From the NCBI GenBank assembly GCA_964537265.1, contig CAZHZE010000009.1, positions 1 to 31,025 on the forward strand: a stretch of 31,025 nucleotides of DNA, in the 5' to 3' direction. This stretch comes from an uncultured Gammaproteobacteria bacterium (GTDB lineage: Bacteria > Patescibacteriota > Patescibacteriia > Patescibacteriales > GWC2-42-12). Position numbers and translations under genes: made by a program. Within the stretch, counting starts at the first letter, position 1. Each line of letters opens with the position of its first letter. Positions 1,756-30,232 of this stretch are shown here, one piece after another. The notes under the pieces are model-generated. The model did no database searches. It was not told where the DNA came from and was given only the letters and a program-made list of their open reading frames with translations.

Positions 1756-2472
1756 TTATATTTTCTCTTTTTGTTTAAACAAATATAATTGTTGTAAAGC
1801 CGTTAACACGGTAGTGATCAACCAATATAGCGCTAGGCCTCCAGGAAAAGACAAACCGATAAAAACCGTTAACGCCGGCATAATATAAAGCATTTGTTTA
1901 TTCATCATCGCCATCATATCTTCATCTTTACTGGCTTCATTTTTAACTTCCGGTCGTTTAGTGGTCATCATTTTAGCTTGCCAAAATTGCGCTAAACCGG
2001 CTAAAACAGCTAACACAACATTAGGCTTGGCTAAATCTATAAAACCAAAAGATATGGTATTAATAGTTTCCGGACGATAAACAAAAGAATAAACAAAATT
2101 AAGATAGTGTCCACTTAATCCATCTCTAAAAACCATAAAAACTGCCCATAAAAAGGGGAGTTGTATTAAAAGAGGAAGACACGAAGAAAATGGATTTACT
2201 TTTTCTTCTTTATATAATTGCATCATTGCTCTGCCCTGTTCTTCTTTATTATTAGCATATTTTTTCTTAATTTCCTCTATTTTAGGTTGTAGTTCCTGTA
2301 AAGATTTTTGCGATTTTATTGACTGTTTTGACAATGGCAGTAAAACCAATTTTATAATAACGGTCATAATAATAATAGCTAAGCCAATATCATGACCAGG
2401 TATAATGTTATATAAAAAAATCAATAAATTAAGTATTGGTTGATAAAAAATAAGGTTAAAAATTGCTGACAT
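1756..2472 (-). CDS. yidC: membrane protein insertase YidC (short form)
   Basis: The 238-aa product is multi-TM and its C-terminal region (GGLALYWLITTVLTALQQ) matches the YidC/Oxa1 family. It sits in the conserved rpmH-rnpA-yidD-yidC context. Confidence 0.9.
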   Translation of the reverse strand: MSAIFNLIFYQPILNLLIFLYNIIPGHDIGLAIIIMTVIIKLVLLPLSKQSIKSQKSLQELQPKIEEIKKKYANNKEEQGRAMMQLYKEEKVNPFSSCLPLLIQLPFLWAVFMVFRDGLSGHYLNFVYSFVYRPETINTISFGFIDLAKPNVVLAVLAGLAQFWQAKMMTTKRPEVKNEASKDEDMMAMMNKQMLYIMPALTVFIGLSFPGGLALYWLITTVLTALQQLYLFKQKEKI

Positions 2473-2485
2473 AAAAATAAATTAT

Positions 2486-2734
2486 TTATTTAAGAGGATC
2501 AAAGCCTCCTGGATTAAATGGATTACAACGTAAAATTCGCCAAAAAGCTTTAATACCGCCTTTAATAAAACCATACTTTTCTACAGCTTGAATGGCATAT
2601 TCTGAGCAAGTTGGACGAAAACGACAAAAACCATGTGGATACAAAAATTTAAAAAAACCATGATCAAAAGAAAGTGTTTTTTGATAAAGTCTTAAAATTT
2701 TTATAGCAATATAGCGCGGATAAAACTTAAGCAT
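2486..2734 (-). CDS. yidD: membrane protein insertion efficiency factor YidD
   Basis: The 82-aa product carries the [11 protein letters not shown] motif typical of YidD. Its position between rnpA and yidC is the usual one. Confidence 0.85.
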
Positions 2735-2735
2735 G

Positions 2736-3086
2736 TTATTTTTTTGTTTTAAATAGCTTTAGGGTGAATAGCGATCTTTCTATCTCGCTTTTTATAAAAG
2801 CATATTTTTGGTTCAATGTTGCTGGCGAAACTATTATAACTAGATCAACACCGTTATTAATTTCTTTATCAAAATTTTTAATTATAGTTCTAATTTGTCT
2901 TTTAAGTTTATTTCTTACAACTGCTTTTTTGCTAACTTTAGTGCTAATTACAATACCATAACGATTAAATTTAAAACCATTAATAGAGGTCTTTACCTTA
3001 AACATCCTGGAAGAAAAAGATTTTCCCAGCTTAAAAACTTTTTTAAAATCTTTATCTTTTGTAAGACGAAATTTTTTAACTAACAT
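2736..3086 (-). CDS. rnpA: ribonuclease P protein component
   Basis: The 116-aa product is basic and carries the RNase P protein signature region ([12 protein letters not shown]...[14 protein letters not shown]). It lies immediately downstream of rpmH. Confidence 0.85.
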
Positions 3087-3143
3087 AAATAAAACACAAA
3101 ATGGTTAAAATTTACTTAACCGGCTAAAAATAGTATGCAACTT

Positions 3144-3284
3144 TTATTTGGTTAATTTTTTTCTGCCTTTAGCTCTTCTTCTTCTTATTACATTGCGTCC
3201 ATTTTTTGTTTGCATTCTTTTTCTAAAACCATGTTTCTTTTTAGCTCTTCTTTTGTTTGGTTGGTAAGTTCTTTTTGTTGACAT
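3144..3284 (-). CDS. rpmH: 50S ribosomal protein L34
   Basis: I translated this myself from the minus strand: [46 protein letters not shown], 46 aa. It matches the L34 consensus (KRTYQP..KR...HGFR.RM.T..GR.V...RR.KGR) and is absent from the ORF track because it is under 60 aa. Confidence 0.88.
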
Positions 3285-3486
3285 AAAATTATTTACCCTA
3301 TTAAAAATTTCTCTTGTTAAAAATTTAATACTGAAAAATTATTCAACAGGGGAATATACTTAATAAAAAAATAAATATTTAGATTTATCTCAAATAAAAC
3401 ATAACATTTTAACTTTTTAAAGTCAAACAAAAAAAATTTATTAGGCTAATTTTTACTATAAAACTATAAAAAATTTTTTCCACCAT

Positions 3487-3495
3487 TTATTCACA
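3487..3495 (+). promoter_or_regulatory. DnaA-box-like 9-mer TTATTCACA, 8/9 match to TTATCCACA, in the rpmH-dnaA divergent intergenic region
   Basis: The sequence ttattcaca lies about 145 nt upstream of the dnaA start. It is the only near-consensus box I see in this 353-nt spacer. Confidence 0.3.
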
Positions 3496-3637
3496 ACTTG
3501 TAAACACAATTGTCTATTTTATATTTATAATTTAGCTGTTATAATGCCTATTGCAATAAGTTCTTCAATTGTTTAATATTAATTTTATATTATTTTGTTA
3601 TATAAAAAATTAACATAAATCATAATTTTCTCATGCT

Positions 3638-4984
3638 ATGAATAATGAGCAACTTTGGCAAGCCGTTTTAGGTGAAATTGAATTAAGTTTATCTAAAGCC
3701 AACTTCACCACCTGGTTTAAAAACACTTTTATTTCTTCTATTGAAAACAGCCGGGCAATTATTTGTGTGCCAAACACTTTTACTAAGGCTTGGTTAGAAA
3801 AAAAATACCACAAAGAAATATGTGGCGCCTTTAAAAATGTTGGCTCAGCAGAAATTAAAGAAATTATTTATAAAGTTGAGGCTAAAAAAGAATTGGTTTC
3901 GGATAATTTAATAAAAAAATTTAAAAACGAAAGTGTTGTTGAAATAAAACCGAAAACTCTTAACCGCTTTGGTCTTAATAATCGATATATTTTTGAAAAT
4001 TTTATTGTGGGAAAAAATAATGAATTAGCCCATGCAGCCTGCCAGGCGGTTTCAGCCAACCCAGGCCATGCTTATAATCCTCTTTTTATTTATGGCGGGG
4101 TTGGGTTGGGAAAAACTCATCTCTTGCAAGCTATCGGCCACGAATTATCTAAAAAAACCGATAAAATTTTATATGTTTCTTCTGAAAAATTTACAAACGA
4201 CTATGTCCACGCAGTTAGAAATGGCCAAGCCAAAGAATTTAAAGATCATTATCGAAATGTTGATTTATTGCTAATTGATGATATTCATTTCATGGGCGGC
4301 AAAGATGGAACTCAAGAAGAATTCTTCCATACTTTTAACGAATTACACCAAACTAATAAACAAATAGTAATTTCTTCTGACCGACCGCCTAAAGCTATAC
4401 CGGCCTTAGAAAAAAGATTGCTTTCCCGCTTTGAATGGGGGATGATAGCCGATATAGGCTCTCCGGATTTAGAAACTAGAATAGCCATTTTAGAAACTAA
4501 ATGTCGAGAAAAAAATTATAAATTAGAAAGAGAAATTTTGGCTTACATTGCTAATAATATCACTAATAATATCCGCGAATTAGAAGGAGCTTTAAATCGC
4601 TTAATCGCTTATTACGAATTTAATAATTCTTTGCCTTCCTTAGACTCTACTAAAAGTATTTTAGCTGGCATAATCTCTAATTTTCAATCTAAATCAACTA
4701 CGCCTAAAACCATTATTGAAGCGGCGGCCAGGTTTTTTGATATTAATGTTAAAGATTTGATCGGCCAAAGCAGAAAAAAAGAATTAGTCGTGCCCAGACA
4801 AATTGTTATGTATTTAATGCGCAAAGAAATTAACGCCTCTTATCCATCTATCGGCCAAGAGTTGGGCGGACGAGACCATACTACAGCTATGCACGCATTT
4901 AATAAAATTGAACGCGAATCACAAGAGGATGAAAAAATAAAACAACACATAGATTCTATAAAACAAGTTCTTTATAGTAGTTAA
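3638..4984 (+). CDS. dnaA: chromosomal replication initiator protein DnaA
   Basis: The 448-aa product has the Walker A motif GGVGLGKTHL, Walker B LLIDDIHF and a sensor region. The C-terminal DNA-binding domain includes VPRQIVMYLMRK...HTTAMHA. Divergent from rpmH and followed by dnaN. Confidence 0.95.
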   Translation: MNNEQLWQAVLGEIELSLSKANFTTWFKNTFISSIENSRAIICVPNTFTKAWLEKKYHKEICGAFKNVGSAEIKEIIYKVEAKKELVSDNLIKKFKNESVVEIKPKTLNRFGLNNRYIFENFIVGKNNELAHAACQAVSANPGHAYNPLFIYGGVGLGKTHLLQAIGHELSKKTDKILYVSSEKFTNDYVHAVRNGQAKEFKDHYRNVDLLLIDDIHFMGGKDGTQEEFFHTFNELHQTNKQIVISSDRPPKAIPALEKRLLSRFEWGMIADIGSPDLETRIAILETKCREKNYKLEREILAYIANNITNNIRELEGALNRLIAYYEFNNSLPSLDSTKSILAGIISNFQSKSTTPKTIIEAAARFFDINVKDLIGQSRKKELVVPRQIVMYLMRKEINASYPSIGQELGGRDHTTAMHAFNKIERESQEDEKIKQHIDSIKQVLYSS

Positions 4985-5243
4985 TAAACCGGTGGAAAAA
5001 AACAAATTAACTGTTAATAATTTATTAAATTTTTTAAAACCAAAAAAATTAACCCCAACCAATTAACACATTAAACAAAAAATCCCACACCCAACACACA
5101 ACCACCAACCACAAAACAACCAACAAACACAACACATAACAAAAAATATTAACTTATTAACTCACCTTATTATTACTATTAGTTTTTAAAATATATAAAT
5201 AATTAAAAATAATTAACAACTCTTAATTTGTTAATAAAAAAAT

Positions 5244-6395
5244 ATGGCCAACCAAAATTCTAATGGATTAAAAATATTTAGTTTGCAAGAAAATTTAAAA
5301 CAAGGCTTAGCGCTGGTTAGTCATATTTCTGGTAAAAATATTAATTTACCAATATTAAATAATGTTTTAATAAAAGCAGAAGATGGAAAAATTAAATTAA
5401 TAAGCACAAATTTAGAGGTTGGGATAATAAGTTCTGTTCGCGGAAAAATTGAAAAAGAAGGTGTTTTTACGGTTAATGCTAAAATTATATCTGATTGTAT
5501 AAGCCTTTTACCAAATAAAAAAATAGGGTTAGAACAAAGCGGGACAGATTTTTTAGTAGATTGTGAAAACTATCAAGTTAAAGTAAGGGGTCAATCAGCC
5601 GAGGAATTTCCTTTAATCCCAGAGGTGGATAAAAAAAATTATTTTAGCGCGCAAGCCGAGGAAATAAAACAGGCTATCTCTCAGGTTATTTTTGCCACCG
5701 CCACTAGTGAAACAAGGTTAGAGTTGTCTGGTGTTTTATTTGTTTTTACTGCAAATTATTTAACTATGGTAGCAACAGATAGTTATCGTTTGGCAGAAAA
5801 AAAAGTAAAAATAAAATCTAATAGCGAAGAAGATAAAAAAATTATTGTACCGGCAAAAACTTTACAGGAGTTATTGAGAATTTTATCTTTAGGTTTAGGA
5901 GATGAAGTAGAAGATAAAAATCAAGAAATAAAATTTTATATTTCAGAAAATCAAATTTTATTTACTTATGGTTCGACCGAATTGGTTTCGCGATTAATTG
6001 AAGGTCAATACCCCGATTATCAACAAATTATTCCTACTAATAGTAAAACAAAAGTTTCTATTAATCAGCAGGAGTTGACTAGAGCTGTAAAAATGGCTTC
6101 TTTATTTTCTAAAACCGGAGTGAATGATGTTAATTTAGATTTTCCTGCCGGTAAAAACCAAGTGGTGATTTCTTCTGTTTCCGGACAAACCGGCGAAAAT
6201 ATAACTAATTTAGAAGCTAAAGTTTCCGGCGATGACAATGGTATGGTTATTAATTATCGTTATCTTTTAGAAGGTTTAAATAATATGGAAAAAGAAATGA
6301 TAAAAATTGATATAATAGATAGTAACACTCCTTGCTTAATTAGACCCGAACAAGATGAAAGTTATTTATATATTATCATGCCTATAAAACAATAA
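5244..6395 (+). CDS. dnaN: DNA polymerase III beta sliding clamp
   Basis: The 383-aa product lies immediately downstream of dnaA and has the three-domain clamp architecture (N-terminal LKQGLALVSHISGKNINLPILNNVLIKA; C-terminal NYRYLLEGL). Confidence 0.9.
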   Translation: MANQNSNGLKIFSLQENLKQGLALVSHISGKNINLPILNNVLIKAEDGKIKLISTNLEVGIISSVRGKIEKEGVFTVNAKIISDCISLLPNKKIGLEQSGTDFLVDCENYQVKVRGQSAEEFPLIPEVDKKNYFSAQAEEIKQAISQVIFATATSETRLELSGVLFVFTANYLTMVATDSYRLAEKKVKIKSNSEEDKKIIVPAKTLQELLRILSLGLGDEVEDKNQEIKFYISENQILFTYGSTELVSRLIEGQYPDYQQIIPTNSKTKVSINQQELTRAVKMASLFSKTGVNDVNLDFPAGKNQVVISSVSGQTGENITNLEAKVSGDDNGMVINYRYLLEGLNNMEKEMIKIDIIDSNTPCLIRPEQDESYLYIIMPIKQ

Positions 6396-6474: not shown

Positions 6475-9432
6475 TTATTGAGAAGTTGCTGGAGTGGTGG
6501 TTGCGTTTATTGTAGATAAGTTATTAACATTAATAGAAATTTCTTTACTAGTATCTATCTGCCCATGCCAACCATGAGCTTCGGCGTAAATTTTATAAGA
6601 ACCGGCATTTAAAATTTTTGTTATTTGCGCCTCAGCTATTTTATCTATTATTTGGCTTTGGGCTATCTGTTGCGTGTTGCCACTTGAATCTTTTAAATAG
6701 AAGATAACCGCGGCTGTTTGTTCTGGGTTGGTCACTTCAGCTTTTATTGTTAAAGGAAAATCATATTTTAAAATATTTGTCTCGTTGGTTGGTTGAATTA
6801 TTGTCGCGCTTATTTTGCTGGTTTTCGGTCGGCTGTTTCTTATTAAATTAAATTCTATTTTTTGTTCAGAACAATTATCAACATCATCACAAGCTCGCGC
6901 AGTTAATGTGTGGTAACCATTAATTAAAGAGCTAACCGATTTATTAAGATTAAAGGGGGCGGTGGTTACGGTACTAAATAAATAACCATCAATATAATAT
7001 TCAACCCTATTAACTCCGCGCGTAGCCGTAGTGCTAACTTTTACATCTAGTGTTTGTCCGGGCAAAGTTTGTTTATTATTTGGATAGTCTATAGAAATTA
7101 CCGGGTTTAATTCTGGGCGATGAACATTATCATATTCAGTCGGCGGAGCAGCATTGATAATGCCTTGTTTTTTCGCCCATTCTTGGACGGCATTTTCCCA
7201 TAAATCAAATTGGGGGTCGCTTTTGGGGTTAGAAGGAATTTCACCACGCGGATCATCTTTGTTGACATAATATAAAATACAATGAGTTTGTTTAAATTGT
7301 TTTTCTATAATGGCGCTGGCCGGAGTAAATTCATTGGCTAAGAGTCCGGAAAATTTATCAATTTTAACCGTAGTCTCAGGATCGGTTACGCCGTCTAATA
7401 TAGGCTTACCGGTTGGAGCGTTTTCCGGGGCGTTAAAATATTCAATTGGAGTATTACCTAAAACTTTCGCCATATAATCATGCCAAATTGGTGCAGCTAC
7501 CACCGAACCATCTGCGCCGCGTTTCATTTCTTTATTATTGTTGTTGCCAACCCAAACCCCAGTAACTATGGATGGAGTATAGCCAATCGTCCAAGCGTCT
7601 CGATAATCATTGGTTGTTCCGGTTTTAGCCGCAACCGGGCGCGATCCTAAAGTTAACATATTGTTTGCGCCAAAAACATAAGCTCTGGCATTGTTATCTG
7701 ATAAAATACTATTGGTTAAGCGGGCAATTTTTGGTTCTAAAATTTTTTCATCTTGATTTTTAAATTCTTCTAAAATATTTCCGTCTTTATCTTCAATTTT
7801 TAAAATAACAGAAATTGGATGTTTAATACCTTCACGGGCAAAGGCGCTAAAAGCATTAGTATGCTCTAAGAGCTTTACTTCGCCGCCGCCTAAAACTAAA
7901 GACAAACCAAACCTGTCCCTATCGTTTAGCGTTGTATAGCCTAAACTTTGTGCCAGATTTAAAACATTGTTAATGCCGGTTAAATAAATAGCTTTAACAG
8001 CCGGTATATTTAAAGAACCGGCTAAAGCTTGCCTAATGGTTACTGGGCCATGTTCTTTTAAATCGTAATTATGAGGCTCATAAGGGTTAGCCGGATCAGT
8101 AGAAAATTTTGTTACCACATCGTAAAGCACGGTGTCTGGCGTATAGCCTTTTACAAAAGAAGCTGTATAAACAATTGGTTTAAAAGATGAGCCTGGTTGG
8201 CGTGGTTGCAAAGCTACGTTTACTTGTCCGTCAATATCATCATTAAAATAATCACGTGAGCCAACCATAGCCAATATTTGCCCTGTTTTTGGGTCAATTG
8301 AAACTAGGGCTGCGTTAGTGGCTTGATAATTTTTTTCATTATTAGTAGCTTTTTCATTAATTACTTCCTCAGCAATTTTTTGCTTATATAAATCTAAAGT
8401 AGTATAAATTTTTAACCCGCCTTGCTCGATCATTTTTTCTCCATATTTATCGGCTAACAATTCTTTTACATACATAATAAAATGAGGCGCTATCATATTG
8501 TCAGATCTTTGTTTAAAAACTAAAGTTGTCTTTTTAGCTTCAGCGGCTTGATCTTTTGTTATATAGCCATATTTAGCCATTAAATCTAAAATATATTGTT
8601 GTCTGGCGATTAACAAATCTTTATGCGAACCAAAAGGAGAATAGCGCGTTGGCGCTTGCGGTATGGCGGCTAAAATCGCCGCTTCAGCCAAATTTATATC
8701 ACGTACGTTTTTGCCAAAATAAAGCTGGCTAGCAGCCTCAACGCCATAAGCGGTCGAGCCGTAAGGTATTTCATTAAAATACATTTGCAAAATTTCATCT
8801 TTGGAAAATTTCTTTTCTATGCGATAAGCTAAAATAATTTCTTTAGCTTTTCTAATAAAAGATTTTTCATTGGTTAAAATGGCGTTTTTAACAAATTGTT
8901 GAGTTAAGGTTGAGCCGCCGGCTTTTTTACCAAATAAAATATCAGTAACAATGGTTCTAAAAATTGCCCAAAGGCTAAAACCTTTGTGTTTATAAAAATC
9001 TTTATCTTCAATAGAAATAGTGGCATTTTTTACATTTTCCGGTATATCTTTTAAATTAACTAAGGTCCTTTTTTGTTCGCCATAGATATCATAAAGAATA
9101 GTTTGTCCGCTACGATCATAAATTTTTGTGCTTTGGGCGATTTGTCGTTCAGTCAAACGATTAGGGTCTGGCAAACCATGGGATAACCATAAAAATCCAG
9201 CATAACCAAAAACAAACAAAGCTAAAAGGCCTATAAATATATTTTTAGGCGTTAAAAATTTGGATATATATTTATTAATATATTTATTTTTGCCGTTTGT
9301 ATATTGTTTAACGATTGTCCGGCTGCTAAAATTTGAAGAAGTTCTTTTAAATTTATTAAAAAAACTATTTTTTTTAGACCGGCGCCAACCTTGAGGAGAT
9401 TTTATATGATTTGAAGAATATGAAGCAGACAT
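6475..9432 (-). CDS. class A penicillin-binding protein (PBP1A-like transglycosylase/transpeptidase) with a long C-terminal extension
   Basis: The 985-aa product has an N-terminal TM, GT51 motifs (EDKDFYKHKGF, GGSTLTQQ), and transpeptidase motifs (SSFKP, SLN, KTGTT). About 250 C-terminal residues look beta-rich. Confidence 0.9.
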   Translation of the reverse strand: MSASYSSNHIKSPQGWRRSKKNSFFNKFKRTSSNFSSRTIVKQYTNGKNKYINKYISKFLTPKNIFIGLLALFVFGYAGFLWLSHGLPDPNRLTERQIAQSTKIYDRSGQTILYDIYGEQKRTLVNLKDIPENVKNATISIEDKDFYKHKGFSLWAIFRTIVTDILFGKKAGGSTLTQQFVKNAILTNEKSFIRKAKEIILAYRIEKKFSKDEILQMYFNEIPYGSTAYGVEAASQLYFGKNVRDINLAEAAILAAIPQAPTRYSPFGSHKDLLIARQQYILDLMAKYGYITKDQAAEAKKTTLVFKQRSDNMIAPHFIMYVKELLADKYGEKMIEQGGLKIYTTLDLYKQKIAEEVINEKATNNEKNYQATNAALVSIDPKTGQILAMVGSRDYFNDDIDGQVNVALQPRQPGSSFKPIVYTASFVKGYTPDTVLYDVVTKFSTDPANPYEPHNYDLKEHGPVTIRQALAGSLNIPAVKAIYLTGINNVLNLAQSLGYTTLNDRDRFGLSLVLGGGEVKLLEHTNAFSAFAREGIKHPISVILKIEDKDGNILEEFKNQDEKILEPKIARLTNSILSDNNARAYVFGANNMLTLGSRPVAAKTGTTNDYRDAWTIGYTPSIVTGVWVGNNNNKEMKRGADGSVVAAPIWHDYMAKVLGNTPIEYFNAPENAPTGKPILDGVTDPETTVKIDKFSGLLANEFTPASAIIEKQFKQTHCILYYVNKDDPRGEIPSNPKSDPQFDLWENAVQEWAKKQGIINAAPPTEYDNVHRPELNPVISIDYPNNKQTLPGQTLDVKVSTTATRGVNRVEYYIDGYLFSTVTTAPFNLNKSVSSLINGYHTLTARACDDVDNCSEQKIEFNLIRNSRPKTSKISATIIQPTNETNILKYDFPLTIKAEVTNPEQTAAVIFYLKDSSGNTQQIAQSQIIDKIAEAQITKILNAGSYKIYAEAHGWHGQIDTSKEISINVNNLSTINATTTPATSQ

Positions 9433-9545
9433 AAAGATTGTAAATATAAAAAATTATACCAGTTTTTAACTTATCTAGCAATTTTAGTAATACAATTTTA
9501 AATATATAAAAATTTATTATTAAACTATTGGCTGGCTTTTAATTT

Positions 9546-9651: not shown

Positions 9652-10059
9652 ATGAAAAAATCATTATTTAAAAAAGCAGTATTATTGGCCATGTCCGTTT
9701 TTGTTTTAATGCCTGTTTTAACTTTTGCTTTGCCGGTTGCAGCCGAAGATTTAAATCCTTGGGGCACTGACACTTTAAAAGAGAATGTTCAAAGCGAAAC
9801 AGGTTTAGGAGACAGAGATCCTCGCGATATCGCTGCTTCAGTGATTCGTGTTATTTTAGGATTTTTAGGCATTGTGGCCGTAATTATAATTTTATTAGGT
9901 GGTTTTAAATGGATGACTGCCGGCGGCAACGAAGATAAAGTTGGTGAAGCTAAAAAATTAATCATGGCCGGTGTTATCGGCTTGGTAATTATTGTGGCGT
10001 CTTTCGCTATTGCTACTTTTGTTTTAGATTCATTAATTAGTGCTACCAGCCAAAGTTAA
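9652..10059 (+). CDS. small secreted/membrane pilin-like protein (T4SS-pilin/TrbC-VirB2-like family expanded in CPR), paralog 1
   Basis: The 135-aa product has a signal peptide and a variable N-terminal segment. Its conserved C-terminal block is ILGFLGIVAVIIILLGGFKWMTAGGNEDKVGEAKKLIMAGVIGLVIIVASFAIATFV, a two-TM hairpin motif shared by nine ORFs in this window. Confidence 0.8.
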   Translation: MKKSLFKKAVLLAMSVFVLMPVLTFALPVAAEDLNPWGTDTLKENVQSETGLGDRDPRDIAASVIRVILGFLGIVAVIIILLGGFKWMTAGGNEDKVGEAKKLIMAGVIGLVIIVASFAIATFVLDSLISATSQS

Positions 10060-10063
10060 TATT

Positions 10064-10081
10064 CTTAATACCGGTATTAAG
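10064..10081 (+). terminator. perfect palindrome cttaataccggtattaag immediately after the paralog 1 stop
   Basis: A 9-bp stem hairpin starts 5 nt after the stop codon. There is no strong T-run, so terminator function is uncertain. Confidence 0.4.
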
Positions 10082-10195
10082 AGCCTGTTTGGAAAGTTCA
10101 TTTCTACTGCAATTTTAAAATTTTGGCATAATTTTAAAAAAATTCTATCCCAAATTTTAAAATTTCGTTGCGAAAGCAACTTTTCAAACAGGCTC
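10081..10195. repeat. structured intergenic element, copy A: 18-nt inverted repeat gagcctgtttggaaagtt / aacttttcaaacaggctc enclosing a 79-nt core
   Basis: The arms are complementary except for one G-T pair. The core begins catttctactgcaattttaaaatttt and ends aaatttcgttgcgaaagc. These core ends are shared with copy B at 29295..29453. Confidence 0.6.
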
Positions 10196-10288
10196 TTGAA
10201 AAAGTGGTGCCCGATTTTTCGGGACCACTGCCATAACCAGGAGTTTAAATTCATGTTTATGGCAGTGAGTTTATAAAAAATAAATAAT

Positions 10289-10726
10289 ATGTTTATCGCA
10301 AAATATCAAAAATTTATTATTTTTAGTTTGTTAATTTTCTTTTCTTTGTTTATGATAGCTCAAGTTGTTTCGGCCGCAATTTACGACCCGGCTGATCCGG
10401 TTGGAACTTCTGGTTTACAAGACACAGCCACTAAAGCGAAGCTGCCTACTAATGATGTTGATCCGTCTGCTTTAATTGGCAGAGTGGTTGGTTACGCATT
10501 ATCTTTTTTGGGTGTGGCTTTTTTTATTCTAATTATTTACGCCGGTTATTTATGGATGTTTTCTATGGGCAATGAACAAACCGTAACAAAAGCCAAAGAA
10601 ATAATTATTGCTGCTGTAATTGGTTTAATAATAGTTTTAATGGCTTATGCTATTACTTCTTACATTGGAGAAGTTTTACAACAAAAATCTTCTAATAGCA
10701 ACACGCAGCAACCAGCCACACCGTAA
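10289..10726 (+). CDS. pilin-like protein, paralog 2
   Basis: The 145-aa product has a signal peptide and the conserved block LSFLGVAFFILIIYAGYLWMFSMGNEQTVTKAKEIIIAAVIGLIIVLMAYAIT. Confidence 0.8.
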   Translation: MFIAKYQKFIIFSLLIFFSLFMIAQVVSAAIYDPADPVGTSGLQDTATKAKLPTNDVDPSALIGRVVGYALSFLGVAFFILIIYAGYLWMFSMGNEQTVTKAKEIIIAAVIGLIIVLMAYAITSYIGEVLQQKSSNSNTQQPATP

Positions 10727-10733
10727 AAAATTT

Positions 10734-11111
10734 ATGAAAAGAATTTTACATTTTTTATCGATTTTTATTGTATTGAGTATTTTTATATTTAATATAAATT
10801 TAATTAATTCTTCAGCCGCATCTTTTAGTGATGGTTTAAAAACAACTGGCGGAAAGATTGGTTATCCTGAAACTGGTCTAGATACATTTTTACCAGCTAC
10901 TATTGGTCAAATCATATCTTTGTCATTAGGATTTTTAGGCGTAGCTTTTTTAGGTATAATGATTTACGCCGGCTATTTGTGGATGATGGCGCGCGGCAAC
11001 GAGCAGGATGTAGAAAAAGCCAAAAATATTATAATTTATGCGGTTATTGGCTTGGTGGTGGTTTTATCCGCCTATGCCATAACCTTAATAATAGGAACTT
11101 TATGGACATAA
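10734..11111 (+). CDS. pilin-like protein, paralog 3
   Basis: The start was reassigned to the ATG at 10734 (MKRILHFL...), since the tracked ORF at 10647 overlaps paralog 2. The conserved block is LGFLGVAFLGIMIYAGYLWMMARGNEQDVEKAKNIIIYAVIGLVVVLSAYAIT. Confidence 0.75.
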   Translation: MKRILHFLSIFIVLSIFIFNINLINSSAASFSDGLKTTGGKIGYPETGLDTFLPATIGQIISLSLGFLGVAFLGIMIYAGYLWMMARGNEQDVEKAKNIIIYAVIGLVVVLSAYAITLIIGTLWT

Positions 11112-11548
11112 AAATAAATTTAAAAAGTAAAAAATTTTTATTATTATTTTTGATTTTATTATTTGGTTTTTTTAGTTTTTCTTTTTGTTTGGCTGATACT
11201 TCGAGCCAAAATTTAAATGATGCTTTTGGCAAACCATTGGAGGACGCGGCAAAAGGAGCTGGTTATGATCAAAGTCAAAAAGATATAACCTCGATAATTT
11301 CTATCATAATTAATTTGGCCTTAAGTTTTTTAGGCGTGATTTTTTTAGGTTTAATGATTTATGGCGGCTATTATTGGATGACGGCTAGGGGTGAAGAAGA
11401 AAAAGTTACTAAAGCTAAAGATACAATTACCAGGGCTATTGTCGGGCTAGTTATTGTTGTTGCCGCTTATGCTATTAGCGTTTTTGTTGTAAATAGCATA
11501 GAATCTAAGACGTTAAAAAATGAACAGCAAAAAGCGCAAATTAAATAA
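11102..11548 (+). CDS. pilin-like protein, paralog 4
   Basis: The start was reassigned to the ATG at 11102 (MDIKINLKSKKF..., a signal/TM segment), which overlaps the paralog 3 stop by 10 nt. The conserved block is LSFLGVIFLGLMIYGGYYWMTARGEEEKVTKAKDTITRAIVGLVIVVAAYAIS. Confidence 0.7.
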   Translation: MDIKINLKSKKFLLLFLILLFGFFSFSFCLADTSSQNLNDAFGKPLEDAAKGAGYDQSQKDITSIISIIINLALSFLGVIFLGLMIYGGYYWMTARGEEEKVTKAKDTITRAIVGLVIVVAAYAISVFVVNSIESKTLKNEQQKAQIK

Positions 11549-11573
11549 CGTAGATAATAAATAAAATAAAAAA

Positions 11574-11960
11574 ATGAATAAATATTTTAAAAAAGTTATA
11601 ATTTTAAGCTGTTTAATAATTTTTTTAGTCGTACCTTTTTTTGCTAACGCGGCTTTACCGTCAGAAAAATTAAAGGTTGTGGGAGAAGGCTCATACACCA
11701 CGGCCGATGAGAAAACTTTAGCAAAAATTATTGGAACTGTTATTCAAGCATTTTTAGGAGTTTTAGGCGTTGTCTTTTTAGCTTTAATGGTTTATGCAGG
11801 ATATTTATGGATGACCGCTAGAGGCGAAGAAGAAAAAGTTACTAAAGCTAAAGATACAATAATGAGAGCGGTTATCGGCTTAATTATAGTAATTGGCTCT
11901 TATGCTATTACTTATTTTGTAGTTGAAAATTTAGTAATTAGCAGTTCAGTTTTTAAATAA
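11574..11960 (+). CDS. pilin-like protein, paralog 5
   Basis: The 128-aa product has the conserved block FLGVLGVVFLALMVYAGYLWMTARGEEEKVTKAKDTIMRAVIGLIIVIGSYAIT. It shares a 35-nt identical DNA tract with paralog 4. Confidence 0.8.
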   Translation: MNKYFKKVIILSCLIIFLVVPFFANAALPSEKLKVVGEGSYTTADEKTLAKIIGTVIQAFLGVLGVVFLALMVYAGYLWMTARGEEEKVTKAKDTIMRAVIGLIIVIGSYAITYFVVENLVISSSVFK

Positions 11961-11965
11961 AAAAT

Positions 11966-12403
11966 ATGCTAAAAAAATATTTTAAAAAAATCACGTTATT
12001 GGTATTTTTATTTTTATTGCTTTTTAATTTTTATTTAGTTCAAACAATTAATGCTAGTACGCAAATTGATATGCAGCTGCAATTGCAAACTGCCGCTAAA
12101 CCATCTTGGGGAGAGCAAGTACCAATTGGAAATAGCAGTTTGGGCGGTATTGTCGCTAAAATAATTCAAGCCTTTTTAGGTTTATTAGGAATTATATTTT
12201 TAGTTTTAATAATTTATGCCGGTTTTCTTTGGATGACGGCGCAGGGTGATGAAGAAAAAGTTAAAAAAGCCAAAGAAATTTTACAACGAGCTGTTATTGG
12301 TTTAGTTATAATTGTTTCGGCTTATGCCATAACTTATTTTGTGTTTAGTAATTTACCTGGTGGAACGGGAAGTAGCAGCGGGGGCGGTTCAATGCCTTAT
12401 TAA
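11966..12403 (+). CDS. pilin-like protein, paralog 6, with a Gly/Ser-rich C-terminal tail
   Basis: The 145-aa product has the conserved block FLGLLGIIFLVLIIYAGFLWMTAQGDEEKVKKAKEILQRAVIGLVIIVSAYAIT, followed by the tail PGGTGSSSGGGSMPY. Confidence 0.8.
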   Translation: MLKKYFKKITLLVFLFLLLFNFYLVQTINASTQIDMQLQLQTAAKPSWGEQVPIGNSSLGGIVAKIIQAFLGLLGIIFLVLIIYAGFLWMTAQGDEEKVKKAKEILQRAVIGLVIIVSAYAITYFVFSNLPGGTGSSSGGGSMPY

Positions 12404-14048: not shown

Positions 14049-14077
14049 TGTGGATAAAAAGTGCTAAGTGTGGATAA
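14049..14077 (+). promoter_or_regulatory. two perfect consensus DnaA boxes in direct orientation with 20-bp spacing
   Basis: tgtggataa, the reverse complement of TTATCCACA, occurs at 14049-14057 and 14069-14077. The pair is bracketed by the two copies of the 27-nt repeat. Confidence 0.6.
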
Positions 14078-14636: not shown

Positions 14637-14667
14637 TTTAGTTTAAAGCAGGTATAAGTTAAATAAT

Positions 14668-20172: not shown

Positions 20173-21621
20173 TTAAAATATTTTAAAATCATCTTCACTG
20201 ATGCTTTTAGATAAATATAGTCCGATACAATAAATTAAGGCTGCTAATAAAACCGTATATATCAAGTTAATTTTAGGCGCTAAAAAATAAACGCCAATAC
20301 CCATAATCAAAGAAATAATAAGAGATTTAAAAAATATTGTAAAATTAGGCCTAAAATTAGCATATTTAAATATAATATAAAAAGAAAAAAGCATGATAGC
20401 TAATTCACTATAAACAGTCACCCAAGCGGCTCCATAATATGAAAAACGAGGGATAAAAATTAAATAGCCAACCAATGAAGTTATGGCGGTAAAAACATAA
20501 GCCGCAATAACATTTTTTTGTTTATCTAAGGCTATAACTGCATGTGCGAACAAACAGCCGATAAAAATAAAACCTATGGCCAAAATTAATATTTTTAAAA
20601 TTTCTCCTGATTGGGCAAAATTTTCTCCAGCTATTAAAATCATCAGCGGCTTAGCTGTAAAAATTGCTCCAATAATCAAGGGCATGGCTAACATTATCAT
20701 GGCATCCAAAGATTTTTGTAGAACCAGATTAAATTTAAATAAATTTTTATTATTCCATTCCATGGTTAATATCGGCAGGATCAGGCCAGCAAACATAAAA
20801 GGTATAGCAGTTAAAACATCGATTATTTTATAAGTAGCGCCGTAAAGCCCGACATCGGTTTGGGTTTTTAATAAAGATAAAATAAAGATATCCGCCCTTA
20901 GATAAATTAAATTAAAAAAAATGGTTAAGCCTAACGGCCAGGATTTTTTAATAATTTCTCGCCAGATATTTAAATCAATTTCCCAGCTGATTTTAATAAA
21001 ACGGCGAGAAAATAAATAATGCATAATAAAGCTGACAAAACTTGAGGCGACAGTGGCTATCATAATGCTTAATAAACCAGTATTAAAATAAACTGTAGCC
21101 ATAACCCCAATTAATAGAACTAAACGGCTAACTATTTCGGCCATGGCCACAACCGTCATGGTTAAATTTTTTTGGAAAAAGCCGACTAGAATTTGATTTA
21201 AAGCCATGAAAAAATAAGATAAGACAGTAACCGTTACGCCAATTTTAATAATTGGCTCATAAGGAAAAAATAAAACGATCAAAGGAGCTAGGCCTAAAAA
21301 AAAGATTGCGGAGATTAAACGTAAAGTAAAAAGATTATTTAATAATGAAGTTTGATTATTGCCCGGCTGGCTAATCATTTGCGTAGTTATTAGGGTTAGC
21401 CCAAAATCAGCTATAATGCCAAAAAACGATAAAAAAGTGATAATGGTAGTATATTGGCCAAAGCCAACCTCTTTTAAATATCTGGCCATAATCGCTATAG
21501 TGGCTAGACCTAAGACGGTTCCGACGGCTTTACCGATTATTTGAACAATGGTATTATATGCTACCATAGAAGAAAGTTTTTTTTCCACCCCGTTAGAAAT
21601 TTTATTTATTTTTTGCTCCAT
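20173..21621 (-). CDS. polysaccharide/oligosaccharide flippase (Wzx-like, MOP superfamily)
   Basis: The 482-aa product is a polytopic membrane protein with about 12-14 TM segments and the size and topology of Wzx/MOP exporters. Confidence 0.65.
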   Translation of the reverse strand: MEQKINKISNGVEKKLSSMVAYNTIVQIIGKAVGTVLGLATIAIMARYLKEVGFGQYTTIITFLSFFGIIADFGLTLITTQMISQPGNNQTSLLNNLFTLRLISAIFFLGLAPLIVLFFPYEPIIKIGVTVTVLSYFFMALNQILVGFFQKNLTMTVVAMAEIVSRLVLLIGVMATVYFNTGLLSIMIATVASSFVSFIMHYLFSRRFIKISWEIDLNIWREIIKKSWPLGLTIFFNLIYLRADIFILSLLKTQTDVGLYGATYKIIDVLTAIPFMFAGLILPILTMEWNNKNLFKFNLVLQKSLDAMIMLAMPLIIGAIFTAKPLMILIAGENFAQSGEILKILILAIGFIFIGCLFAHAVIALDKQKNVIAAYVFTAITSLVGYLIFIPRFSYYGAAWVTVYSELAIMLFSFYIIFKYANFRPNFTIFFKSLIISLIMGIGVYFLAPKINLIYTVLLAALIYCIGLYLSKSISEDDFKIF

Positions 21622-21895
21622 AGTAATATTTCAAACGATTTTTTAAATATTTTTTGCCCATGCCGCTTTTTAAATACTTTTCTCTAAAAAAAGCATCGTA
21701 TTTATTATATGATGATTCAAAATATATAAGTTTGAATGGTCTCCTGTTTTTAGTCGCGAACACTTTACCATCGTTATGTTCCTTTGTTCTTTTAGTTATA
21801 TTGTTTGTACAGCCAGTATACCATAGTTTGTCTTTTAAACTTTCTAAAACATAAACGTACCACAATATTTTTTGTAAATTTCTAACGGGGTCCAT
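21602..21895 (-). CDS. GIY-YIG nuclease-domain protein
   Basis: The 97-aa product has WYVYVLES...KLWYTGCTNNITKRTKEHN, which matches the GIY-YIG motif pair followed by a conserved Arg/Glu. It overlaps the flippase start by 20 nt. Confidence 0.7.
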   Translation of the reverse strand: MDPVRNLQKILWYVYVLESLKDKLWYTGCTNNITKRTKEHNDGKVFATKNRRPFKLIYFESSYNKYDAFFREKYLKSGMGKKYLKNRLKYYYGAKNK

Positions 21896-21958
21896 ATTTT
21901 TGCTTGAATTGCCTATTTTTTGTATAATTAAAGTATAATTAAATTATAGCAAAATAAT

Positions 21959-22402
21959 ATGTTTATGACTAAAAAGATTTTTAACTATGTTCTAAGCATT
22001 GTTTTTTTGTCCATGTGTCTAACCTTAATTCCGGCAAGTTTTGATTTTCAGCCGGTAAACCAAACTAAAGCTGCTGGTTGGTGGGATACGGTAAATAATA
22101 ACGAATTCAAACAAGTTGGTTCTGTTTATGGCAATAACACAACCAAGGATATAAGAATGGTAGTGGTAGATATTATAAAAAAAATTCTAGGTCTTTTAGG
22201 AGTTATAGCTTTAGTGATTATTTTATATGCCGGTTTTAAATGGATGACATCGGCTGGCAACGAAGAAACTATTACTTCCGCCAAAAAGACTTTAATCGCC
22301 GGCTTGATTGGTTTAGCTATTATTTTATTCTCTTATGCTATAGCCACTTTTGTTATAAAATATTTATCTGCCGCCAGTACTGGCCAGCAAGTAATTTGGT
22401 AA
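21959..22402 (+). CDS. pilin-like protein, paralog 7
   Basis: The 147-aa product has a signal peptide and the conserved block ILGLLGVIALVIILYAGFKWMTSAGNEETITSAKKTLIAGLIGLAIILFSYAIATFV. Confidence 0.8.
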   Translation: MFMTKKIFNYVLSIVFLSMCLTLIPASFDFQPVNQTKAAGWWDTVNNNEFKQVGSVYGNNTTKDIRMVVVDIIKKILGLLGVIALVIILYAGFKWMTSAGNEETITSAKKTLIAGLIGLAIILFSYAIATFVIKYLSAASTGQQVIW

Positions 22403-22438
22403 TAATGCTAATATATAAATTAATTTATAAATAAAATT

Positions 22439-22864
22439 ATGCAACAAAACATTTTTCAAAAAATCGTTTTAGCGACAATGATTTTTGCAGCTCTCACTTT
22501 GATTATGCTGCCAGTTTCTAAAACTATGGCCCTAGAAGCAGATGATTATTGGGGTGGCACTGAACAACGCCAGTATGTTGACCAAAACTCTGGTTTAGCC
22601 GGAGGGGAAACAGCCAGGGATCCTCGCTTAGTGGTGGTAGACGTAATAAAAACTATCTTAGGTTTTTTAGGTGTTATAGCTTTAGTGATTATTTTATATG
22701 CCGGTTTTAGATGGATGACTGCCGGCGGAAATGAAGAAAACGTTTCAACGGCTAAAAAAATATTAATTTCAGCTTTAATCGGTTTAGTTATTATTTTATC
22801 TTCCTACGCTTTAGCTACTTTTGTTTTAGATCAAATGGTAAAAGCTATTTCAGGAAATAGTTAA
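22439..22864 (+). CDS. pilin-like protein, paralog 8
   Basis: The 141-aa product has the block ILGFLGVIALVIILYAGFRWMTAGGNEENVSTAKKILISALIGLVIILSSYALATFV. A 47-nt tract is identical in 46 of 47 positions to paralog 7. Its N-terminal RDPR motif is shared with paralog 1. Confidence 0.8.
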   Translation: MQQNIFQKIVLATMIFAALTLIMLPVSKTMALEADDYWGGTEQRQYVDQNSGLAGGETARDPRLVVVDVIKTILGFLGVIALVIILYAGFRWMTAGGNEENVSTAKKILISALIGLVIILSSYALATFVLDQMVKAISGNS

Positions 22865-28124: not shown

Positions 28125-28814
28125 TCACCCCAACCCTCTCCTTGTTAATGAGAGGGATTTTTTACTATTCCTTTCTCGCCATTCCTGTATTTTTTTATGA
28201 TTACCAGATAAAAGTACTTTTGGTACTTGGTATTTTTTATTATTAGTTTGAAAAATTTCCGGCCGCGTATATTGCGGATGCTCTAAAATTCCTGGCTTAG
28301 CATGCGATTCATATTTTGCGCTATCGGCATTGCCTAAGGCACCAGGTAATAATCTGGTGATAGAATCTACAATTGCCATAGCGCCAATTTCGCCGCCGGT
28401 TAAAACATAATCGCCGATAGAAATTTCTTCATCAATAAATTTAGCAATTCTTTCATCAACGCCTTCGTAGCGGCCGCAAATTAAAATAATATCATTTAAT
28501 TTAGTGTGTGACTTAGCTAGTTGTTGATTCCAAGTTTTACCTTTTGCAGAAAGAAGAATAATTTTTATTTTTTTATTTTTAATTTTTGATTTAATATTTT
28601 TTATAGCTTTATATAACGGTTCAATTTTCATAACCATGCCAGCGCCGCCGCCGAAGGGCGTGTCGTCTACGGTTTTATGTTTGTCGATTGTCCAATCGCG
28701 TAAGTTATAAATTTTAATGTTGATTAATTTATTTTTTTGCGCGCGCTTAAGAATACTCTCATTAAAATAAGAGTCAAAGATTTTAGGAAAAATTGTAATA
28801 ATGTGAAAAGTCAT
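28125..28814 (-). CDS. trmD: tRNA (guanine37-N1)-methyltransferase
   Basis: The 229-aa product has the SPOUT-fold motifs IITIFPKIF, DDTPFGGGAGMVMK and GRYEGVDERI. Confidence 0.9.
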   Translation of the reverse strand: MTFHIITIFPKIFDSYFNESILKRAQKNKLINIKIYNLRDWTIDKHKTVDDTPFGGGAGMVMKIEPLYKAIKNIKSKIKNKKIKIILLSAKGKTWNQQLAKSHTKLNDIILICGRYEGVDERIAKFIDEEISIGDYVLTGGEIGAMAIVDSITRLLPGALGNADSAKYESHAKPGILEHPQYTRPEIFQTNNKKYQVPKVLLSGNHKKIQEWRERNSKKSLSLTRRGLG

Positions 28815-28876: not shown

Positions 28877-29197
28877 TTAGATTTTTAAATCATCAACAGA
28901 TGAAGTGTCAATCCCTGAATCGCGTCTGGGTTGGCGTCTAGCGCCTTCCGGTTCATAGATTTTCAAGTTGACACGAGCATTGTTTTTAGCGCCAACGATC
29001 TTTAATAAAGTTCGGATGGCTTGGGCTGTCTGACCTTTTCGGCCAATGATATATCCCATGTCGGCCGGGTCGGTTTTGAGTGTTAACAAAACTCCCATTT
29101 CGTCTACTGTTCTATCCACTGATACAGCATCAGGGTTAGAAACAACTGACTTGGCGACGAATTCCAAGAATGCTTGATCGGATGCTTGAGCAGCCAT
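28877..29197 (-). CDS. khpA: KH-domain RNA-binding protein (KhpA-like)
   Basis: The 106-aa product has the KH motif IGRKGQTAQAIRTLL and lies between rpsP and trmD, as is usual. Confidence 0.75.
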   Translation of the reverse strand: MAAQASDQAFLEFVAKSVVSNPDAVSVDRTVDEMGVLLTLKTDPADMGYIIGRKGQTAQAIRTLLKIVGAKNNARVNLKIYEPEGARRQPRRDSGIDTSSVDDLKI

Positions 29198-29294
29198 AGT
29201 TTTCTTTCTCTTACAAAGCTGACTACAGAGGTAAATGCCTCATAAATATTTTCAGTCAGAATTGAAAGATCTCTTAATAATTAAACCCAATTGT

Positions 29295-29453
29295 GGGGTT
29301 ATCATAGAATACCATTTCTACTGCAATTTGAAAATTTTAGCTGCAAATTTTTTAAAGCTCCTCCGCTTATATTTCATAAACATCGTCGCTTTATAAAATT
29401 TTCGCTTTTAAATTTTCAAATTTCGTAACGAAAGCGTATTCTGTGATAACCCC
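29295..29453. repeat. structured intergenic element, copy B: 18-nt inverted repeat ggggttatcatagaatac / gtattctgtgataacccc enclosing a 123-nt core
   Basis: The arms are complementary except for one T-G pair. The core starts catttctactgcaatttgaaaatttt and ends aaatttcgtaacgaaagc, matching the core ends of copy A. It sits inside the rpsP-khpA spacer. Confidence 0.6.
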
Positions 29454-29497
29454 TTTGGGATTATGTTATTATAACATAAATCAAAATTTTGTCAATC

Positions 29498-29869
29498 TTA
29501 AGCAGTTGGTTGTTCTGTTTTTATTTCTTCTACTTGAGCCGGCGCAGTTTCAGTAGCCGCTGGTTGTTCGGTAGCTTTAGCCGGGGCTGGAGCTTTTTTA
29601 GCTTTTCTATTTTTTGAAGCTTTTAGCTTTTTACCTTCAATAATTTTTTTCTCAATCAATAAATTATTTACTGTATTAGACATGCCAGCGCCTTTAGAAA
29701 GCCAATACTTAGTTTTTTCGGCATCAATTTTTAATTCTTTGGTGTGCGGATTGTAAGAACCTAAAATTTCTAAAGAATCTCCATAAAGATCTTTATGTTT
29801 TTCTGATATGAGGACGCGATACAATGGTTTATTCTTTTTCCCCACCCTTGATAATCTGATAGTTAACAT
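29498..29869 (-). CDS. rpsP: 30S ribosomal protein S16 with an Ala/Pro/Lys-rich C-terminal tail
   Basis: The N-terminus MLTIRLSRVGKKNKPLYRV...YNPHTKE matches S16. The C-terminus is ...KNRKAKKAPAPAKATEQPAATETAPAQ. Confidence 0.9.
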   Translation of the reverse strand: MLTIRLSRVGKKNKPLYRVLISEKHKDLYGDSLEILGSYNPHTKELKIDAEKTKYWLSKGAGMSNTVNNLLIEKKIIEGKKLKASKNRKAKKAPAPAKATEQPAATETAPAQVEEIKTEQPTA

Positions 29870-30037: not shown

Positions 30038-30044
30038 CTTTGCT

Positions 30045-30195
30045 TTTATTATCGCAAAAGCTACGGCGGGCAAGCCCGCTTATTATGGCGGCTTGCACTA
30101 CGTAGCCTTGGCGAAGTAGTGTCGGGCTGCTCACGAATTGAAGGGGCGGAAGCCCCACGCCGACACGCTGATTTCGGCAAGCCCAACAACCTAAC
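30045..30195. ncRNA. GC-rich structured RNA candidate between tRNA-Gly and tRNA-Pro; identity and strand unresolved (SRP-RNA-like long hairpin is one hypothesis)
   Basis: The GC-rich core of about 140 nt contrasts sharply with the AT-rich flanks. It contains nested helices: gctacg...cgtagc, gcgggc-aa-gcccgc, gtgtcgg...ccgacac, and ggggc-GGAA-gcccc. The minus-strand reading contains GAGCAGCC, reminiscent of the SRP helix 8 motif, but the fit to SRP is imperfect. Tracked ORFs at 29940..30197 and 30061..30264 overlap tRNAs and are rejected. Confidence 0.35.
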
Positions 30196-30232
30196 AAAAA
30201 ATTCTAAAGTCGCAAGGACTTTATAATTTTTG

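Follow-up and report, generated by a model that had tools for sequence, protein, structure and literature searches.

A foldback element, probably inserted behind the khpA promoter, in the rpsP-khpA spacer of a Patescibacteria contig

Why are rpsP and khpA, which encode ribosomal protein S16 and a KH-domain RNA-binding protein, separated by exactly 300 nucleotides (nt) in contig CAZHZE010000009.1 of assembly GCA_964537265.1? We analysed positions 1 to 31,025 of this contig (31,025 nt, called the window below), where gene limits set by open reading frames (ORFs) and Pfam place the spacer at 29198-29497. A first-pass annotation had reported this 300-nt gap, which the Pfam limits bear out, and had taken it to consist largely of one copy (copy B) of an element with an 18-base-pair (bp) inverted repeat. 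Its description of the sequence, with a foldback, its arms and a second copy of the core in the window, was accurate, and the inverted repeat is real; copy B fills only 159 of the 300 nt, however, and the remainder is the native promoter and leader of khpA. The spacer is probably the normal region of about 140 nt of this clade plus one recently inserted foldback element, the gap being unusually long because the 159-nt element was inserted behind the khpA promoter. The locus is laid out as follows.

28125..28814, minus strand: trmD, tRNA m1G37 methyltransferase (Pfam PF01746, E=2.2e-53)
28877..29197, minus strand: khpA, KH-domain RNA-binding protein of 106 aa (Pfam PF13083, E=1.6e-21)
29198..29281, minus strand: rest of the khpA leader, with the single-stranded AUUAUUAAGAGA, hairpin 2 and a purine-rich ribosome-binding region
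29282..29294, minus strand: 3' half of leader hairpin P1 (UUGGGUUUA) and junction nucleotides, from the comparison with relatives and predicted folds
29295..29453, plus strand (the strand of the family's CATTTCTACTGC core): element copy B, 159 nt, inside the P1 loop; absent from relatives; covariance-model score 168 bits
29454..29463, minus strand: 5' half of leader hairpin P1 (UAAUCCCAA), kept in relatives; predicted 5' end of the khpA mRNA
29468..29495, minus strand: predicted khpA promoter, with TTGACA at 29495-29490, a 16-nt spacer, TATAAT at 29473-29468 and a TG extended -10
29498..29869, minus strand: rpsP, ribosomal protein S16 of 123 aa with a K/A/E-rich C-terminal tail (ORF; Pfam PF00886, E=5.8e-16)

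The loci of relatives, fetched through exact and homologous KhpA and TrmD proteins and given L numbers here, show the same region without the element. The rpsP-khpA spacer measures 131-165 nt at nine element-free loci from six related lineages:

L024, KhpA 100% identical to that of the window: 140 nt
L056-58, TrmD inside the window's 90%-identity cluster: 140 nt
L026, KhpA 92% identical: 142 nt
L027, KhpA 84% identical: 131 nt
L049 and L050, KhpA 82% identical: 140 nt
L051, KhpA 85% identical: 165 nt

The gene pair is hence not normally tight, as had been supposed; in this clade it is parted by a spacer with its own promoter and leader. That the spacer reflects an insertion was confirmed, as close relatives, including L024 with its identical KhpA, have the same locus without the element. 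Apart from the window, just three contigs, whose spacer is identical, have the site filled, and since all outgroups are empty, the change at this site was a gain of copy B.

The predicted khpA promoter begins 2 nt past the rpsP stop codon and matches the sigma-70 consensus at 12 of 12 positions. It stands at the same position in the nine element-free relatives, where it reads TTGACA, 16-17 nt and TATAAT (TAAAAT instead in the L024 group), and from its sequence we infer that it is active. The leader behind it has a common order, namely P1 (UAAUCCC...GGGAAUUA), a conserved single-stranded stretch, hairpin 2 with a variable tip (at about 29209-29269 in the window, UCUUUCAAUUCUGACU...AGUCAGCUUUGNAAGA), a purine-rich stretch and the AUG. 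The window's parts of this region (29198-29294 and 29454-29497, minus strand) are kept in L024, L026, L027, L049, L051 and L056. Positions 29198-29281 are conserved in the six lineages with variation confined to the hairpin tips, so the leader consists of two hairpins whose stems and linker are invariant (UUAUUAAGAGAUCUUUCAAUUCUGACU...AGUCAGC) and whose tips are free to vary. The P1 loop is 4-22 nt long in the relatives, and it is this apical loop that the element replaces in the window. In predicted folds, the 5' half of P1 pairs with 29282-29290 whether the element is present or removed, and the leader has one architecture with and without it (window compared with L024). The leader found no match in Rfam and, judging from its conservation, looks like an undescribed cis-regulatory leader for khpA-trmD.

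Copy B starts 14 nt downstream of the -10 box of this promoter. It is composed of a 5' arm (29295-29312, GGGGTTATCATAGAATAC), a 5' core (29313-29340), a variable apical domain (29341-29410), a 3' core (29411-29435) and a 3' arm (29436-29453, GTATTCTGTGATAACCCC), and its arms are complementary at 17 of 18 positions, the sole exception being a U-G on the plus strand. Its folding stands well apart from that of shuffled sequences (z = -7.9 on the plus and -8.9 on the minus strand; 0 of 200 shuffles as stable), and a scan of both strands for intrinsic terminators reported none. We considered whether the spacer might instead encode a small protein, MFMKYKRRSFKKFAAKIFKLQ, on the operon strand, as copy B has an in-frame ATG-to-TAG ORF on its minus strand that ends at the conserved TTGCAGTAG, and L028 has a similar one preceded by GGAGG. 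This likeness follows from nucleotide homology, however, and the frame is not conserved, being broken or startless in L033, L038, L045, L047 and all copies of the type 2 described below. As no conserved ORF was found in the element copies on either strand, we rejected this candidate, and such a protein is extremely unlikely.

The core blocks CATTTCTACTGCAATTT and AAATTTCGTNNCGAAAGC of copy B recur once more in the window, in copy A:

10081..10197, plus strand: element copy A, 117 nt, short form; covariance-model score 127 bits

This copy lies 21 nt past the stop codon of a T4SS-pilin gene, between two T4SS-pilin genes. The core common to both copies reads CATTTCTACTGCAATTT[T/G]AAAATTTT ... AAATTTT[A/C]AAATTTCGTNNCGAAAGC; copy A is without about 46 nt of the apical domain, its arms are entirely different (GAGCCTGTTTGGAAAGTT / AACTTTTCAAACAGGCTCTT), and the AT-rich inner stem shows one compensatory change, T-A to G-C, between the copies. 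The window holds two paralogous arrays of T4SS-pilin-like genes, six genes at 9652-12403 and two at 21959-22864, and copy A follows the first gene of the six-gene array.

Further members were sought by one genome scan and one metagenome scan with an exact 21-base core pattern, so that family size, copy number and host range as given here are lower bounds. This pattern returned five true copies in species-representative genomes and ten in metagenome contigs, and the family comprises at least 13 distinct copies in Patescibacteria. Besides the window, the carriers are:

L028: a Falkowbacteria metagenome-assembled genome (MAG)
L033: a Kuenenbacteria MAG, with four identical metagenome contigs
L029/L041, L032 and L034: other Patescibacteria or bacterial MAGs
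L035, L038, L042 and L045-L048: metagenome contigs, of which L047 has its nearest KhpA relatives labelled Magasanikbacteria

The copies are 75-179 nt long with a GC content of 0.23-0.44; those found by the pattern run from a minimal form of 75 nt (L034) to about 166 nt, and the apical domain is dispensable. The terminal arms measure 18-20 bp and drift in sequence between subtypes with their pairing kept. Arm type 1 is GGGTCTGTCGCCGAATAC, from which copy B departs by six changes, with compensation on the opposite arm (one as a U-G wobble), and arm type 2 is AGAGCCTGTTTGGAAAGTT, which includes copy A. In an alignment of ten copies, both partners have changed in 14 of the 19 outer-stem pairs and pairing holds in 95% of cells, a level reached by none of 500 shuffles and approached by no slid register. 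Between the arms lies a conserved asymmetric core (UUUCUACUG... / ...CGAAAG) with a variable tip. The 5' core is invariant among the pattern matches because it was the search pattern; however, a covariance model built from the pattern-found copies detected two further diverged types in the window's clade, beyond the reach of the pattern. One, in L056, has arms GAGATAGTTATAAAACTA and the core TTTCTACTGTAATTT...AAATTTCGCTACGAAA, and since this core was found without the pattern, it independently confirms core conservation. The other, in L059-L068, combines arms GGGGCTATTGATAAAGACC with a core that has diverged further; the pairing of its UUCGG with CCGAA supports a predicted long-range helix between the two core blocks. 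The 3'-core motif CGAAAG is invariant and is the only motif common to all types.

Two copies are present in the 31-kb window and at most one exact-pattern match per representative genome, and in about 245 kb of loci the covariance model found none beyond the copies described here. The neighbouring genes are diverse (pilin, IMPDH, mraZ, sugar transferase, PBP1, GIY-YIG, DUF5661, khpA and an RRM-protein gene). Nearly all copies occupy operon spacers or 5' untranslated regions (5' UTRs), with a promoter-like site at a distance of 8-180 nt and a start codon at 10-120 nt. A riboswitch or gene-specific leader would be tied to one gene family or pathway and one orientation; here the downstream genes are diverse and the orientation to the mRNA varies. 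In Rfam 15, searched at gathering and permissive thresholds with the window and four other loci, the only matches were to microRNA-precursor hairpins (20-34 bits against thresholds of 90-230). A blastn search against plasmids and phages gave no match; in viral contigs, the 17-nt core gave 21 matches, all coding-sequence noise, and the 3' core with an arm gave one false match only. In the literature on repeat elements or RNA motifs of Patescibacteria and Parcubacteria, we found no description of this family.

Mobility is shown by five sites at which one lineage carries the element and a close relative lacks it:

rpsP-khpA leader (copy B): filled in the window and three contigs; empty in L024, L056-58, L026, L027, L049/50 and L051
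Downstream of pilin-1 (copy A): filled in the window and, by the long form, in L035; empty in L059, L060, L064 and L065, where GGTATTAA runs straight into GAAAAAG
A second, independent khpA leader: filled in L047 (466-631, 317-nt spacer); empty in L069, L070 and L077 (159 nt), whose KhpA is 93-95% identical to that of L047
PBP1 gene 5' UTR: filled in L059-L068 (L059 2124-2289, L065 2136-2301), with a TGTTATAAT promoter 11 nt upstream and the start codon of PBP1 (transglycosylase/transpeptidase) 9 nt downstream; empty in the window at ~9433-9447
GIY-YIG gene-pilin gene spacer: filled in L056 (9335-9513, GCA_964431805.1) by a copy of the third arm type, with the promoter TGCTATAAT, that of a small GIY-YIG nuclease gene, 8 nt upstream; empty in the window at ~21896-21958

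Four of the five sites fall within about 30 kb of gene order common to the window and GCA_964431805.1. The L047 insertion belongs to a distant lineage and has the opposite orientation to copy B. Target-site duplications, which the first-pass annotation had suggested looking for at the inverted repeat, are absent from all five filled/empty pairs, the nearest approach being an ambiguous 2-nt GA microhomology at copy A. The left flanks (TTGT, TTAA, GAGA, TTCT, GCCT, AAAA and others) contain no conserved target motif. The target of copy B is the loop of a small hairpin and that of copy A the 3' foot of a perfect 9+9 palindrome (CTTAATACC/GGTATTAAG), and three insertions (copy B, the PBP1 site and the GIY-YIG site) lie in the same orientation 8-14 nt downstream of extended -10 promoters. 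Type-2 copies about 95% identical to each other stand at unrelated loci (pilin, mraZ 5' UTR, upstream of a sugar transferase). Taken with the empty sites, this makes it reasonably likely that the element behaves as a non-autonomous mobile element which inserts without target duplication, often at or by small hairpins and shortly behind promoters.

No transposase or recombinase gene was found in the window. The sole nuclease-like gene there encodes a 97-aa GIY-YIG protein (21602-21895), and no evidence ties this protein to the element. A search within 8 kb for the missing 3' half of the truncated L032 copy, a test for a cargo-carrying parent, did not find it. The element-free relatives of L047 have a Transposase_mut (IS256-type) gene about 1 kb downstream of khpA (L070 2293-2412, L072 1674-1793). 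A similarity between flanks and arms (the 8-mer CGACAGAC by the L047 copy; 12 of 18 matches at copy B) was noticed post hoc, is insignificant after allowing for the number of comparisons and was discarded.

The same fate befell replication direction as a cause of orientation: GC skew follows the gene strand and two perfect DnaA boxes lie elsewhere, and the assignment of replichores is therefore unsafe. The boxes (TTATCCACA) are at window 14049-14077 on the minus strand, 20 nt apart, between tRNA-Cys and a dksA/traR-type zinc-finger gene, with a one-mismatch box at 14667. The origin-type gene order is at 1756-6395, where a minus-strand group of yidC, yidD, rnpA and rpmH (3144-3284) faces the plus-strand genes dnaA (3638-4984) and dnaN; the AT-rich rpmH-dnaA gap of 350 nt has a single near-match to a DnaA box.

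The element resembles several known repeats without matching any; its nearest counterparts in behaviour are small palindromic repeats of bacteria. It shares with bacterial repeats of the Correia/ERIC/RUP type, which resemble MITEs (miniature transposable elements with inverted repeats), a small (<~200-300 bp) non-coding sequence, terminal inverted repeats (the arm sequence not being conserved between subtypes) and presence/absence polymorphism, but lacks their target duplication (often TA). REP and BIME sequences, which are associated with RAYT, are highly repeated GC-rich palindromes of 20-40 nt that bear a GTAG head at the 5' end; the present copies are AT-rich and longer, with GTAG found only inside the core on the complementary strand. 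Elements of the IS200/IS605 type insert without target duplication, need folded DNA hairpins and are expected to show orientation effects from single-strand exposure; they lack terminal inverted repeats, carry a different hairpin at each end and insert beside a fixed 4-5-nt target. The lack of duplication is shared, whereas the present element is one long foldback with perfect terminal arms and differing, motif-free left flanks, and no TnpA gene was seen; this also sets it apart from non-autonomous derivatives of that group. No copy is followed by a T run, as an intrinsic terminator would be. Stabilising stem-loops at mRNA 5' ends and RNase III hairpins (ompA 5' UTR, phage T7 R1.1-type) are much shorter and fixed in particular transcripts; the likeness lies in a stem-loop at the extreme 5' end of the mRNA, as predicted here, and in a long duplex with a conserved asymmetric internal loop.

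The Correia elements of Neisseria (CREE/NEMIS) come close, as they are non-coding, 100-155 bp long, with terminal inverted repeats round a conserved core, have long and short forms differing by an internal segment, are intergenic and co-transcribed, and show filled/empty polymorphism between strains. RNase III binds or cuts their RNA hairpins, and these can change neighbouring gene expression (PMC2649163, PMC2229807). Their terminal repeats are conserved and 24-26 bp long, their termini are TA, they have a target duplication, and a genome holds hundreds of copies (PMC2229807), while in the present family the arms differ completely between subtypes with only their pairing kept, no duplication is seen at the five sites and copy number is apparently low. 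ERIC/IRU and YPAL/RU-2 of enterobacteria and Yersinia are imperfect palindromes of 127-168 bp in transcribed intergenic DNA, with variants arising by internal insertion or deletion (PMC2229807). The effect of ERIC on mRNA stability depends on orientation, YPAL targets lie on or by dyad symmetries, YPAL mobility is known from filled/empty comparison, and both make target duplications (PMC2229807). They differ in having no conserved asymmetric core between free-drifting arms, a high copy number and unrelated sequence. Given the absence of target duplication and of a known parent insertion sequence, we did not file the element in any named family; we class it as a variant among small non-autonomous palindromic mobile repeats.

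Which strand of copy B is transcribed bears on what it does to the operon. The earlier proposal was that the plus strand is transcribed, on the ground of its wobble polarity, and may act as an antisense regulator of rpsP-khpA-trmD. The single arm mismatch in each window copy does read U-G on the plus strand, and the same strand is the mRNA-sense strand in about ten other loci; yet the polarity comes from one mismatch per copy and vanishes across the family, since paired positions in the ten aligned copies hold 6 G-U against 8 A-C on the core (plus) strand. On the plus strand, no sigma-70-like promoter directed into copy B lies within 70 nt, and the element is not followed by any terminator-like site. 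It is the minus strand that the 12/12 promoter reads into, and neither a coding sequence nor a ribosome-binding site, as a target for antisense RNA, overlaps the element. The minus strand of copy B also folds better (-62.0 against -52.5 kcal/mol). Antisense regulation is therefore very improbable. Across the family, the complement of the core strand is the more stable in nine of ten copies with RNA parameters and in all ten with DNA parameters, partly because the type-1 apical internal loop gives, on that strand, two tandem G-A/A-G pairs round a central pair that flips between C-G and G-C. In copy B, this better-folding strand is the one that the khpA promoter is predicted to transcribe. An initial 10:1 bias for the core strand as mRNA-sense fell to about 10:3 after diverged copies were added, and as it weakened in this way, we drew no conclusion from orientation.

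To judge from the promoter and the predicted folds, the khpA-trmD mRNA most likely includes the element, as a long stem-loop at its 5' end. The khpA promoter would transcribe the minus strand of the element from a start near 29461; at the head of the mRNA, P1 would be lengthened to a rod-like stem-loop of about 75 pairs, and the remaining leader would stay as it is. The predicted energy is about -62 kcal/mol for the element alone and -86 kcal/mol for the whole leader. The suggestion that the insertion brings RNA structure into the operon thus holds in the predicted fold, in which a large structure is added to the khpA-trmD transcript; the position 14 nt after the -10 box and the extension of P1 point to a duplex of about 20 bp or more near the transcript 5' end. 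Co-transcribed Correia and ERIC repeats are substrates of RNase III or RNase E (PMC2649163, PMC2229807). The likeliest consequence would be altered 5'-end-dependent mRNA decay or an entry site for RNase III, unless the element is merely tolerated. By analogy with these repeats, and with 5' stem-loops that retard 5'-end-dependent decay, it could raise or lower khpA-trmD mRNA stability; equally, copy B could be a tolerated passenger in a loop already variable in length between lineages.

Several observations weigh against the reading of a recently inserted mobile repeat that is transcribed with khpA. Each representative genome has at most one exact-pattern copy and the window two, unlike classical MITE families, and no autonomous parent element turned up. 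Whether the element was gained or lost can be told clearly for copy B and L047, less clearly at the other three sites. The window and L035 differ at 1 position in 119 nt of arms and core, with flanks differing by about 10-25%, and L046 and L042 show 0 differences in 47 positions of arms and core; an element better conserved than its flanks suggests either selection on it or very recent spread. At three of about 13 loci the gene that follows encodes a small RNA-binding protein (KhpA in two independent cases, an RRM protein in one), a hint of function. We infer promoter use, transcription and any effect on the mRNA from sequence.

These points lend some weight to the alternative that the element is functional for its host, as a portable 5'-UTR or intergenic stem-loop whose internal loop is a site for RNase III, KhpA/KhpB or an RRM protein, copy B having put khpA-trmD under such control. 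At orthologous sites the conservation of arms and core far exceeds that of the flanks, CGAAAG is unchanged in every type, even those detected independently of the pattern, the tandem G-A/A-G reading of the type-1 loop agrees with the better-folding strand, and the copies cluster near promoter-like sites as described. However, recent spread of a selfish element explains the low divergence as well, the neighbouring genes are otherwise unrelated, the mRNA strand is inconstant (the core strand at about ten loci, its complement at three) and lacks G-U polarity, and very close relatives do without the element at every site examined, so that a host function has only a modest chance of being right. 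The same retention of pairing without RNA-type wobble polarity, together with the consistent strand preference under DNA parameters, fits an element acting at the DNA level, where a folded strand or cruciform would serve recombination, replication or its own transposition and would be drawn to transiently single-stranded DNA, the khpA leader being incidental. The missing target duplications, the three same-orientation insertions behind extended -10 promoters in the window's clade and the hairpin-loop and palindrome-foot targets point the same way. Yet no associated enzyme gene was found, the left ends lack a target motif, and promoter proximity may mirror where non-coding space exists in a compact genome; moreover, this explanation overlaps with the favoured one, as it concerns how the element moves and not what the spacer is. 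As a separate account it is improbable.

Insertion of a mobile repeat behind the khpA promoter thus remains the preferred explanation. A bolder version, which we regard as unlikely, would have the element integrate as a folded single strand at transiently unpaired promoters or small hairpins, making it a new hairpin-shaped mobile class in Patescibacteria that leaves no target duplication, and each insertion would supply the transcript with a standard 5' stem-loop, its conserved internal loop being read by RNase III, KhpA/KhpB or an RRM protein. If true, a portable module of post-transcriptional control would be spreading through very small genomes. Transposition without target duplication that favours promoter-proximal or hairpin DNA would itself be of mechanistic interest.

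Patescibacteria genomes are tiny, tightly packed and generally thought poor in mobile elements. Within about 30 kb of common gene order, two close relatives are unlike at four sites through gain or loss of the element, which suggests that these genomes are less static than assumed. Insertions in the first nucleotides of housekeeping transcripts (khpA-trmD, PBP1) offer natural experiments on the effects of long 5' stem-loops. For annotation, such spacers should not be taken for regulatory RNAs or antisense genes.

A few minor observations were made around these loci. In close relatives, a 78-aa GIY-YIG gene lies about 580 nt upstream of rpsP (L056 654-890, L057 5555-5791); as the window has only 93 nt between rpsP and tRNA-Gly, this gene is variably present. 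Between tRNA-Pro and tRNA-Gly, within an AT-rich tRNA cluster, a GC-rich stretch of 195 nt (window 30038-30232, minus strand) has a folding z of -4.7 and no Rfam match, and may, on predicted folding, be an unannotated structured RNA. The region upstream of mraZ (L046 ~11100-11200, minus strand; L042 ~7540-7640) has a consensus promoter followed by GTGG/TGGGG repeats resembling MraZ operator repeats, and the mraZ 5' UTR, of about 370 nt, holds a type-2 element.

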